The notes under the pieces: model-generated
Databases searched by the model: none
Told to the model about the DNA's origin: nothing
The model's input: only the letters and a program-made list of their open reading frames with translations
Shown here: positions 27,436 through 49,090 of the stretch, piece after piece
How the letters are laid out: each line of letters starts with the position of its first letter
How positions within the stretch are numbered: position 1 is the first letter of the stretch
Virus record (IMG/VR): IMGVR_UViG_2974496990_000001
Coordinates: 47,606 to 111,605 of that record
Strand: one strand, 5' to 3'
DNA length: 64,000 nucleotides
Source: a virus
Program-made: the position numbers and the translations under genes

Positions 27436-27577
27436 TGTACGGAACGCCTGGATTCGAACCAGGTTACAGGGCAGTTGACGCTACACTGCATTTTGGATAA
27501 GGCCGTCAACGCATTTCCTCAACAGGAGCATCGTCAAATGCTTCATCCTGGAGAAAACTTGTCAAGTCCTCGAACCG
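27436..27577 (-). ncRNA. tRNA-like stable RNA (T4 RNA C / species 1-like)
   Basis: 5' CGGTTCGAGGA, internal GTAGCGTCAACT, 3' T-arm CCTGG-TTCGAAT-CCAGG; about 140 nt, like recalled T4 species 1 RNA. Confidence 0.75.
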
Positions 27578-28034: not shown

Positions 28035-28072
28035 TTCATTTTACCTTTGTCATTGTTAACATTATATAGCCT

Positions 28073-28190
28073 CCGGGTCCAGAGAGTACAAACAAGTAGC
28101 TTGATGTAGAACACATGAAATATGTGGGAACAACGTCGCTTCGATTCCCGGCATTTACTTATGGAATCTCCCAATACTCATCTCTCTGAA
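28073..28190 (-). ncRNA. Candidate structured RNA 3' of tRNA-Asp
   Basis: Closing stem CAGAGAG/CTCTCTG, inner GGGAA/TTCCC and CACAT/ATGTG, possible CCGGG/CCCGG pseudoknot. Confidence 0.4.
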
Positions 28191-28209
28191 CTGCCTCGTT
28201 ACTTGAATT

Positions 28210-28285
28210 TGGCGGACCTAACGAGATTCGAACTCGTGACGCTCCCGTGACAGGGGAGTATTTTAACCGCTGAAACTATAGGTCC
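28210..28285 (-). tRNA. tRNA-Asp(GTC)
   Basis: Full cloverleaf, anticodon GTC, encoded CCA. Confidence 0.95.
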
Positions 28286-28456
28286 GGATTGCGCCCATCT
28301 TGTTGTGGTATTAGGCCATACCTTTCGGCTGGGTACTTCCAGGGAACAGAGCTTGGACGACTTAAGGGTGTACATCCATCTGGGCTTAGAGTCGTCTTAC
28401 AGACACGAGTATTATTCCAACTCTACCACATCACCAGCTTGGTCCCTCTTGTTTTC
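28286..28456 (-). ncRNA. Candidate pseudoknotted RNA between tRNAs
   Basis: Stems GACGAC/GTCGTC, AGGGAC/GTTCCCT and crossing TGTGGTA/TACCACA. Confidence 0.5.
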
Positions 28457-28505
28457 TGGCAGGCGCTTGAGGAATCCACCGCTCTACCAACTGAGCTAAG
28501 CACCT
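28457..28505 (-). pseudogene. tRNA with a 27-nt internal deletion (probably derived from tRNA-Trp)
   Basis: AGGTGCT acceptor, intact D-arm, GTGGATT-CCTC, AGCGCCT-G-CCA; 49 nt; anticodon 3' arm and most of the T-arm missing. Confidence 0.75.
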
Positions 28506-28508
28506 AAT

Positions 28509-28584
28509 TGGGGTGACCTATGGGACTTGAACCCATGACTACAAGAATCACAATCTTGAATTCTACCAACTGAATTAAGGCCAC
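28509..28584 (-). tRNA. tRNA-His(GTG)
   Basis: Cloverleaf, anticodon GTG, C73, CCA. Confidence 0.93.
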
Positions 28585-47276: not shown

Positions 47277-49090
47277 TGAAACAAAATATCAAAATTGGTA
47301 ACGTAGTAGATGACGGTACTGGTGACTACCTTCGCCAAGGTGGCTTAAAAATTAATGAAAACTTTGACGAGTTGTACTATCAATTAGGCGATGGTGCTAC
47401 ACCTCATGCCGCCGGTGCTTGGAAGAAACATTCGAGCGCTACAAGTGCAACTTTAGATGCAGAGTTTGGCCACAGCTACACAATTGACACTACTCCTGGT
47501 CGTTGCACAGTTAAACTCCCTAAAGGGACCGCAGCAGAATATAACTTCGTAATCCGTCTGCGCGACGTTTATTCTACTTGGCAACTTAACCCAGTTACTA
47601 TTCTTCCTGCTACCGGTGATACCATTAAAGGTTCTCCTAATGCAGTAGAAATTAAACGTAACCTTTCAGACCTTGAATTGGTCTACTGTTCTCCTGGTCG
47701 TTGGGAATACATTAACAACAAATCAATCGACCGTATTGATAATAATGACGTTGCAACAGTAGCTTCCCAGGAATATATTGCGACTGAAGGTCAAACTGAC
47801 TTCATGAATATATTCCCGGCTCATGGTTATAACCCTGTGAACCTTAAAGTCTATCATCGTGGTAACGTTCTGTTCTACGGTAAAGATGGTATTTTCGATG
47901 CAACGAATGCTGAAGTAGGTTCACCAGGAACGGCGCCTGGACAACTTATTGCATATGATGGTAAAAACATCAGACTGCGTAATGCGTGTAAAGCAGGCGA
48001 CACAGTAATCATCGTATCGTATATGGATGGTCTCGGCCAATGGCGTAGTTCTTATAATCGCCGTCAGGTCCGTGTACTTGATTCGGCCAGAACAAACAAA
48101 ACATCCGTAAATGGTTCTGTTATTGTTGATGACCTGGCTAACAAACTGATTTACACAGTAGAAGAACTTGGCATCAATGCAAGTCAGCCAGTTAACCCTA
48201 ATGCGTGTGAACTGACCATTAACAGTACGCTTCAAAACCAGGCAGGTACTGCAGGTCTTCCATTATTCCGTTGTGAAGGTGCCGAAGGTGAAACTGAAGA
48301 AGTATGTTTTGCTAATAATGGTACTTGGGTTTATTCTGCCACTGACTTCGTATTTGAAATGGACGATACGGGTCTTAAAATTGAATCGGTTCGTTTTGAT
48401 AAGCCTTTAGAACATGATGATGTTATAGGTCTTATTTGGTATAACAATAACATCGGTACTACTCTTGAGATTGAAGAAATCTTGGCGGTAACCGATGATC
48501 GTTATATTTCAGGTACAGAGCCTATTACTCTGACTGGCCAGGTTCGAATCACTGATTTAGATAATCCATTTTCTCCTAATGTGGAAGCTGTAGCCGAAAC
48601 AGAATTTAAACCGAGCTCTGTGGGTGCTTTATTTGAACTGTTTTATCCAGTAGGAACCGTATATGAAAACACGGTGAACCCAAATAACCCTTCAACATTT
48701 ATGGGCTTTGGTTATTGGAAGAGATTAGAAGATCGTGTTCATGTTGGTTGGTCTGCTGATGCAGGTACCAAATTTAACCTGAACAATAACGACCTTGATT
48801 CGTTTGGTAATCCACGTGCTACGGCTGGTGGTACTGGCGGTTCTACAACCGTTACCTTGAAATCTCAGAATATTCCTAAATTACTTACTGATGATAAAGT
48901 TCTTATCGTAGACCCTAACGGTCCTATTATTGTAGGTGGTTGTCAGTTTGACCCTGATTCACAAGGTCCTGCTTATACTAAATACCGTGAAGATTACGCT
49001 ACTATTAACAAAATACAAGACCCGGTTGCGGTGGCAGTTGATACCATGAACCCGTATCTTGTTGTTCATCGTTGGGTGAGGGTTTCTTAA
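47276..49090 (+). CDS. 10: Baseplate wedge and tail pin gp10
   Basis: MKQNIKIGNVVDDGTGDYLRQGG. Confidence 0.95.
   Translation: MKQNIKIGNVVDDGTGDYLRQGGLKINENFDELYYQLGDGATPHAAGAWKKHSSATSATLDAEFGHSYTIDTTPGRCTVKLPKGTAAEYNFVIRLRDVYSTWQLNPVTILPATGDTIKGSPNAVEIKRNLSDLELVYCSPGRWEYINNKSIDRIDNNDVATVASQEYIATEGQTDFMNIFPAHGYNPVNLKVYHRGNVLFYGKDGIFDATNAEVGSPGTAPGQLIAYDGKNIRLRNACKAGDTVIIVSYMDGLGQWRSSYNRRQVRVLDSARTNKTSVNGSVIVDDLANKLIYTVEELGINASQPVNPNACELTINSTLQNQAGTAGLPLFRCEGAEGETEEVCFANNGTWVYSATDFVFEMDDTGLKIESVRFDKPLEHDDVIGLIWYNNNIGTTLEIEEILAVTDDRYISGTEPITLTGQVRITDLDNPFSPNVEAVAETEFKPSSVGALFELFYPVGTVYENTVNPNNPSTFMGFGYWKRLEDRVHVGWSADAGTKFNLNNNDLDSFGNPRATAGGTGGSTTVTLKSQNIPKLLTDDKVLIVDPNGPIIVGGCQFDPDSQGPAYTKYREDYATINKIQDPVAVAVDTMNPYLVVHRWVRVS

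Follow-up and report, generated by a model that had tools for sequence, protein, structure and literature searches.

A probable long form of the T4 rnaD RNA in the tRNA operon of a Kanagawavirus-like phage

The rnaD RNA of bacteriophage T4, also called species 2 RNA, is a small stable RNA that has been known since the 1970s and has remained an orphan ever since. In the T4 genome (NC_000866, 71053-71171; X03016, "species 2 RNA"), annotated rnaD lies directly 3' of tRNA-Arg and carries the blocks AAGUCGUC, UCCCUG, CACAGC, and GGCGCA, in this order. The gene is almost never annotated and is often found under the label "hypothetical protein"; among the T4-type matches listed, only X03016 labels rnaD as an RNA, and many of the others are overlaid by "hypothetical protein" CDS calls. 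The species I and species II RNAs of T4 are part of a tRNA precursor of ~1.75 kb (PMC2330249) and accumulate as late RNAs, as seen by northern blot and RNA-seq (PMC9697503), while the function of rnaD is given as unknown in the literature (PMC3014915, PMC9697503).

Here, we describe an RNA gene in a stretch of 64,000 nucleotides (hereafter called the window), namely positions 47,606 to 111,605 of the IMG/VR record IMGVR_UViG_2974496990_000001, which is a complete record of a 177,643-bp T4-like, Kanagawavirus-like phage (Tevenvirinae). The nearest relatives of this phage are Klebsiella phage KLB31 (97%), Kosakonia phage 305, and further members of Kanagawavirus. Six tRNA genes (Leu, Met, Lys, Asn, His, and Asp) were identified on the minus strand of the window by ARAGORN and Rfam, and the gap between tRNA-His and tRNA-Asp is occupied by a remnant of a tRNA-Trp gene followed by an ORF-free element of 171 nt, which ends at the base preceding G+1 of tRNA-Asp. 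An earlier note on this DNA, made from its letters alone, had described the 171-nt stretch as abutting tRNA-Asp; indeed, the stretch fits exactly between the remnant and tRNA-Asp (Table 1), and the junction between the element and tRNA-Asp is also present in contigs of the sequencing runs X1, X5, and X8. The small ORFs at the element all extend into tRNA genes, and the compensatory changes described below, together with a 23-nt difference in the length of the tip hairpin, speak against protein coding. A scan for promoters and terminators gave nothing exceeding the shuffle expectation.

Table 1. Features of the probable rnaD gene and its flanks (positions in the window)
Feature	Position	Strand	Basis
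Whole RNA gene (171 nt), probable long-form homologue of T4 rnaD, starting right behind the CCA of the tRNA-Trp remnant and ending right before tRNA-Asp	28286-28456	minus	alignment with T4 rnaD and others; covariance model
A-rich single-stranded 5' leader, GAAAACAA	28449-28456	minus	purine-rich leader conserved in all long forms
H1, 5' strand GAGGG (partner 28364-28368)	28444-28448	minus	covariation
Py, 5' strand CCA (28442-28440), and Px, 5' strand CUGG (28437-28434)	28434-28442	minus	98.6% paired
Hypervariable tip hairpin of the 5' domain, containing the "tRNA-Tyr-like" letters	28384-28433	minus	matches KLB31 only
3' strands of Px (CCAG, 28383-28380), Py (UGG, 28378-28376), and H1 (CCCUU, 28368-28364)	28364-28383	minus	covariation
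Internal loop AUGUACA between the 3' strands of Px, Py, and H1	within 28364-28383	minus	
Linker AA and Pc, 5' strand G(U)CGUCC, with U28360 bulged	28355-28363	minus	invariant block
P3, 5' strand UGUU (partner 28301-28304)	28345-28348	minus	two-sided changes in 3 of 4 pairs
Invariant unpaired CCC, facing the single C28305	28342-28344	minus	invariant in 28 of 28 members
H2, variable hairpin with closing pairs U28341-A28306 and G28340-C28307	28306-28341	minus	closing pairs 96% paired
H2, GAAA-capped tip	28332-28316	minus	compensated in IME523; constrained fold
P3, 3' strand AACA (28304-28301), joiner AGAU, and Pc, 3' strand GGGCGC (28296-28291)	28291-28304	minus	covariation
3' tail AAUCC: invariant A and four nt up to G+1 of tRNA-Asp	28286-28290	minus	
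tRNA-Trp gene remnant (flank)	28457-28505	minus	compared with KLB31; 27 nt missing between GAUUCC direct repeats
tRNA-Asp(GUC) (flank), 5' end abutting the RNA	28210-28285	minus	ARAGORN and Rfam

In the tRNA-Trp(CCA) remnant, the 27-nt deletion runs from the anticodon loop to the T loop, while the acceptor stem and the D arm are kept. This tRNA is intact in KLB31 and Kosakonia phage 305, and the missing 27 nt are present in contigs of three independent runs (X1, X5, and X7); the deletion is thus specific to the window genome. Further along the minus strand, we noticed an ORF-free block (28060-28209) on the 3' side of tRNA-Asp that is conserved in KLB31, CIP9, and IME523; it reads CGAGGCAGUyCAGAGAGAUGAG ... 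GUACUCUCUGGACCCGGA, contains the inverted repeat CAGAGAG/CUCUCUG, had no match in Rfam, and may be either another stable RNA or the 5' UTR of a downstream ORF with a signal peptide. Positions 27438-27504 (minus) are homologous to the 3' half of T4 rnaC, or species 1 RNA (its positions 74-139; 78% identical, E 1e-8), so that tRNA-Asp, the conserved block, and a small ORF stand between rnaD and rnaC in the window genome. A different conserved block, UUUAAAGUAGACCACGGAAAA, follows rnaD in KLB31, Kosakonia phage 305, and two other lineages (loci L001, 1290-1312, minus; L003, ~920-945; L015; and L018), and the window has tRNA-Asp in its place.

We consider that the 171-nt stretch is very probably the rnaD (species 2 RNA) gene of this phage in an expanded long form, and its identity as an rnaD homologue is held with high confidence. 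The element and T4 rnaD have the blocks AAG(U)CGUC, UCCCUG, CACAnC, and GGCGCA in common and in the same order, and with the first block read as AAG(U/C)CGUC, the order also holds in an alignment of 28 distinct members with 23 invariant columns. The element is part of a phage tRNA operon, is encoded on the same strand as the tRNAs, and directly follows a tRNA-type unit; furthermore, it has the 3'-domain fold of the family, that is, helix Pc with its bulged U, P3, the CCC/C loop, and H2. In size, it departs from the T4 pattern (~119 nt with a simple 5' hairpin) by its expanded 5' domain, which makes it a variant of rnaD and leaves the core unaffected. When a covariance model (R1) was trained on 18 short forms only, with the window and every long form excluded, it matched positions 28387-28287 with 43.2 bits (E 8e-9), and this was the sole match in the window and in the whole 177.6-kb genome; the rnaD-type element is hence a single-copy gene in this phage.

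The element is 99% identical to its counterpart in KLB31 and 83% identical to that in Kosakonia phage 305, while its 3' half recurs in CIP9, ZX14, and Q7622 and its middle recurs in Certrevirus phages (Vequintavirinae). In one of the latter, CR3, the homologue is on the strand of the tRNAs and fills the 168 nt between tRNA-Lys and tRNA-Asn, for which the record has no annotation. The members were collected by a pattern scan of viral contigs followed by an nhmmer filter; about half of the loci in the first scan were GC-rich coding false positives, two further scans of viral contigs yielded only one extra member (L146), and a scan of viral contigs with the pattern GCCCAGA..AAGTCGTC gave 119 loci, all of which were chance matches. 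In all, T4-type rnaD was found in 735 phage records and the long form in Kanagawavirus and Certrevirus phages; no description of a long form was found in the published literature. In some T4-type phages, a second unit occurs right upstream of the full rnaD: at the loci L028 and L042, a miniature and degenerate rnaD-like unit (AAGCCGUCG ... CGGCGCA, with no UCCCUG) stands ~60 nt upstream of the full copy.

The earlier note had proposed an Infernal/Rfam search and the collection of homologues as checks. Rfam 15 has no family for rnaD-type RNA, and searches of the window, the isolated element, and seven homologue loci, at the gathering thresholds and at E<=10, returned only tRNAs and spurious weak matches such as chrB-b at 14 bits or YrlA over tRNA genes, with no family matching the element. 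The collection, on the other hand, gave the 28 members and the compensatory changes among them, and a conserved, structured non-coding RNA gene inside the tRNA operon is supported.

To test the fold, the 28 members were aligned with MAFFT without any structural information, and the helices Pc and P3 and the two closing pairs of H2 were examined. In this alignment, 97.3% of the cells were paired as compared with 28-54% when the partner strand was slid, four pairs changed on both sides, and the covariation score was reached by none of 500 shuffles. Pc is formed by G(U)CGUCS with SGGCGC and contains the bulged U (a C in CIP9) and a U-G pair; 17 members have G-C as its last pair and the other 11 have C-G, without exception, and given that the other five of its six pairs never vary, Pc rests on this single covarying pair plus invariance. 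P3 is formed by the four bases that precede the invariant CCC and those that come after CA-C; one of its pairs appears as UG, UA, GC, CG, or AU, and another as GC and AU. Family-wide, the 3' domain runs from the closing helix (G(U)CGUCS/SGGCGC) through P3, the invariant CCC/C internal loop, and the variable hairpin H2 to the 3' tail, which opens with an invariant A; the tail of T4, like that of many other members, reads A-CC(A).

In the ten long forms, 93.8% of the cells were paired and ten pairs changed on both sides, with a score again reached by none of 500 shuffles; the 18 short forms were 93.4% paired. The 5' part of the long forms consists of H1 (GAGGG/CCCUU), Py (CCA/UGG), and Px (CUGG/CCAG) around the hypervariable tip hairpin. 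H1 (98% paired) changes from AGGG/CCCU to GCGG/CCGC and GCGAG/CUCGC, with both sides changing in three of five pairs, while Py changes to UUG/CAA in the member L022 and Px is nearly invariant. The RNA therefore folds into two irregular hairpins joined by AA, and this fold is fully nested. The earlier note had called the RNA multi-stem and pseudoknotted; the former is right, but the pseudoknot is not supported, as the covariation-supported fold is nested throughout.

The complementary segments listed in the earlier note are all present as written, but only the GCC-GAAA-GGU hairpin is supported in relatives, being compensated as GUC-UUCG-GAU in IME523. The helix AGGGAC/GUUCCCU is 82% paired among the ten long forms with no compensatory change; it uses the H1 strand together with the invariant UCCCU and breaks whenever the 5' strand varies, that is, in every member with a different H1 strand. 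The helix GACGAC/GUCGUC, which uses the lineage-specific tip, and the alternative pair GCUGG/CCAGC are each 62% paired among the ten long forms, the latter not above controls. Eight of the ten long forms have gaps at the crossing helix UGUGGUA/UACCACA, which is limited to the window and KLB31; it also uses the lineage-specific tip and overlaps the conserved pairs of H2 and P3. The folding energy of the element (-45.1 kcal/mol) is close to that of shuffles (-43.6 +/- 4.1 kcal/mol; z = -0.37, and z = +0.39 for the plus strand), and its two perfect 7-bp helices compare with 0.65 expected, with at least two occurring in 16% of the shuffles. On the window sequence, the computed energy of the covariation fold (-38.0 kcal/mol) lies ~6 kcal/mol above that of the minimum-energy fold (-44.2 kcal/mol), so that the covariation fold is the less stable one in silico. 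The minimum-energy fold relies on lineage-specific pairings, including the AGGGA/UCCCU pairing proposed earlier, so alternative conformers are possible, and members with AGGG may adopt one.

Given these results, it is extremely improbable that the element represents a new class of pseudoknotted non-coding RNA or ribozyme, in which the crossing helix and the nested stems would form a catalytic core for self-cleavage or splicing. Such a class, which the earlier note had favored, would accord with the presence of the complementary segments, the absence of a matching Rfam family, and the invariant internal loops, which remain unexplained; nonetheless, the element is homologous to a known RNA, namely T4 rnaD, and of the five helices proposed, three do not hold up in relatives. 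The crossing helix, which only the window and KLB31 possess, conflicts with conserved pairs, and the single-sequence fold is not above shuffles. The note had found group I core motifs to be missing; no Rfam match to a group I intron was obtained, and a group I intron in a tRNA gene was also rejected: in KLB31, an intact tRNA-Trp stands directly upstream of the element and no 3' tRNA half follows downstream, which shows that the element is not an intron. A hammerhead reading of CUGAUG...GAAA in T4 was likewise discarded by eye, as both motifs flank a single helix and the window lacks CUGAUGA. Equally improbable is a functionless, decaying spacer that consists of tRNA gene debris such as the 5' half of a tRNA-Tyr. 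The neighboring tRNA-Trp gene is visibly damaged and tRNA arrays turn over fast in these phages, but conserved blocks and compensatory changes across two phage subfamilies speak against debris. Moreover, no tRNA signal was detected: the letters taken for a decayed tRNA-Tyr belong to the lineage-specific hairpin tip, in which ARAGORN called no tRNA at thresholds of 80% or higher and Rfam gave none at E<=10. The element has neither a cloverleaf nor significant similarity to tRNA-Tyr, and a tRNA-Tyr origin of the tip was rejected since its alignment to the tRNA-Tyr of relatives did not exceed shuffles.

A different proposal is that the stretch serves solely in cis, as a leader or processing platform for the maturation of the flanking tRNAs, with no role as a free RNA. 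It is always in tRNA operons, usually directly behind a tRNA and often 4-10 nt before the next, as this proposal would have it; we nevertheless regard it as improbable, because the downstream neighbor varies (tRNA-Asp in the window, none in KLB31 and Kosakonia phage 305, and rnaC in T4), as does the upstream one (tRNA-Arg, -His, -Trp, -Lys, -Asn, or an ORF), and T4 rnaD accumulates as a discrete stable RNA (PMC9697503). A miniature relative or decoy of RNase P RNA is, in our estimate, less probable still. Here, AAG-U(bulge)-C... and the ACAG..GAA helix would correspond to the P4 helix with its flanking joiners and AGAUGGAU to CR-IV; by eye, the element bears short resemblances to CR-I, CR-IV, and CR-V of E. 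coli M1 RNA, a U is bulged in its closing helix, and a hairpin ending in a 3' A-CC tail resembles model substrates of RNase P. No RNase P family was matched at E<=10 in the window and seven homologue loci, however, and the topology is nested where a long-range P4 pseudoknot with single-stranded joiners is expected, by which RNase P RNA was rejected. In addition, "ACAGCA" is not single-stranded but paired in P3, the CR-IV-like letters are located 5' of the CR-I-like ones, and the bulge is a C in CIP9.

As for the production of the window rnaD, it would be transcribed within the minus-strand tRNA operon, as in T4, and released by the tRNA-processing machinery. Cleavage by RNase P at G+1 of tRNA-Asp, which the earlier note had also expected and which agrees with established tRNA processing, would set its 3' end, whereas its 5' end would arise when the precursor is cleaved and trimmed downstream of the CCA in the tRNA-Trp remnant. 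The family core ends 4 nt before tRNA-Asp in the window, and six members have a downstream tRNA at a distance of 4-10 nt from the core. Metatranscriptome contigs cover both halves of the element, but they are short and possibly represent DNA carry-over; two of these, X7 (28369-28566) and X8 (28218-28368), end at adjacent bases, come from one study, and one of them has the length of a single read. The sequencing runs consist of contigs only, which show no RNA ends, strand, or level.

The near invariance of Pc, the bulged U, the U-G pair, and the CCC/C loop suggests sequence-specific recognition by a partner and thus favors a stable RNA acting in trans. We therefore propose, tentatively, that a protein or host factor recognizing tRNA-like helix ends binds the invariant 3' domain in a sequence-specific manner and that the RNA acts in trans and not as a ribozyme, while the 5' domain may be a replaceable module for stabilization or processing. 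When a T4-like phage adapted to semi-permissive E. coli, a mutation (SNP) in rnaD was the only one common to three lines (PMC12685909); this convergence is a hint, and the only functional one in print, of a trans role tied to the host. A bolder and rather unlikely version is that rnaD-family RNAs are mimics of tRNA ends, in which the bulged-U helix and the CCC loop would bind or titrate a host factor acting on tRNA-like helices, for instance RNase P or a tRNA-directed defense nuclease, as a tool for counter-defense or host takeover with a swappable 5' domain tuning stability. In T4 and many other members, A-CC(A) comes after the helix, which is reminiscent of an acceptor end; this analogy is weakened by the absence of the A-CC tail in the window (AAUCC) and several relatives. 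If true, such mimicry would give a function to a 50-year-old orphan RNA and explain the convergent rnaD mutation on a semi-permissive host.

In the short forms, a hairpin of 4-7 bp (4-5 bp in T4) replaces the whole 5' domain of the long forms, which spans ~85 nt, and the boundaries of H1 are common to both. The tip is longest in the window and KLB31, exceeding those of Kosakonia phage 305 and of the X1 contig, from a food metagenome, by 23 nt. An X1 contig of a co-occurring relative also joins window position 28363 to 28507, with a 23-nt short hairpin replacing tRNA-Trp and the long 5' domain; this swap is exactly at the H1 boundary, indicating that the 5' domain is a swappable module.

In summary, the window RNA belongs to the rnaD family and reveals neither a new kind of RNA nor a ribozyme. 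Our comparison supplies a covariation-backed fold for the family and evidence that its functional core is the 3' domain and that an expanded two-domain form is common to T4-like and Vequintavirinae phages. These results can be used as an aid to annotation and point to the bulged U, the CCC loop, and the helices Pc and P3 as targets for mutagenesis.

Among known RNAs, bacterial RNase P RNA (Rfam RF00010/RF00011) has only short resemblances to the window RNA around the bulged-U helix and differs in topology and size, with no model match. T4 rnaC (species 1 RNA), the second orphan among the stable RNAs from the T4 tRNA operon, is unrelated in sequence and structure, and possesses a tRNA-type T-arm that the window RNA lacks. 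In contrast, T4 rnaD agrees with the window RNA in operon context and strand, in the invariant blocks, and in the 3' domain (Pc, P3, the CCC/C loop, and H2), and a model made from T4-type and other short forms detects the window RNA. Differences between the two are in length (171 nt in the window vs 119 nt in T4), the 5' part (the H1-Py-Px-tip domain vs the small hairpin), the 3' tail (AAUCC vs ACCA), the last pair of Pc (C-G vs G-C), and the next gene (tRNA-Asp vs rnaC). The long forms of Certrevirus (e.g., Cronobacter phage CR3) and of the Klebsiella phage Marfa type, all unannotated in their records, have the same two domains, share the conserved 5'-domain letters CCAAGCUGGUA ... GCCCAGAUGGAUG, and, like the window RNA, start right behind a tRNA CCA and end a few nt upstream of the following tRNA; their tip hairpins and H2 differ from those of the window, in which the tip is the longest seen.
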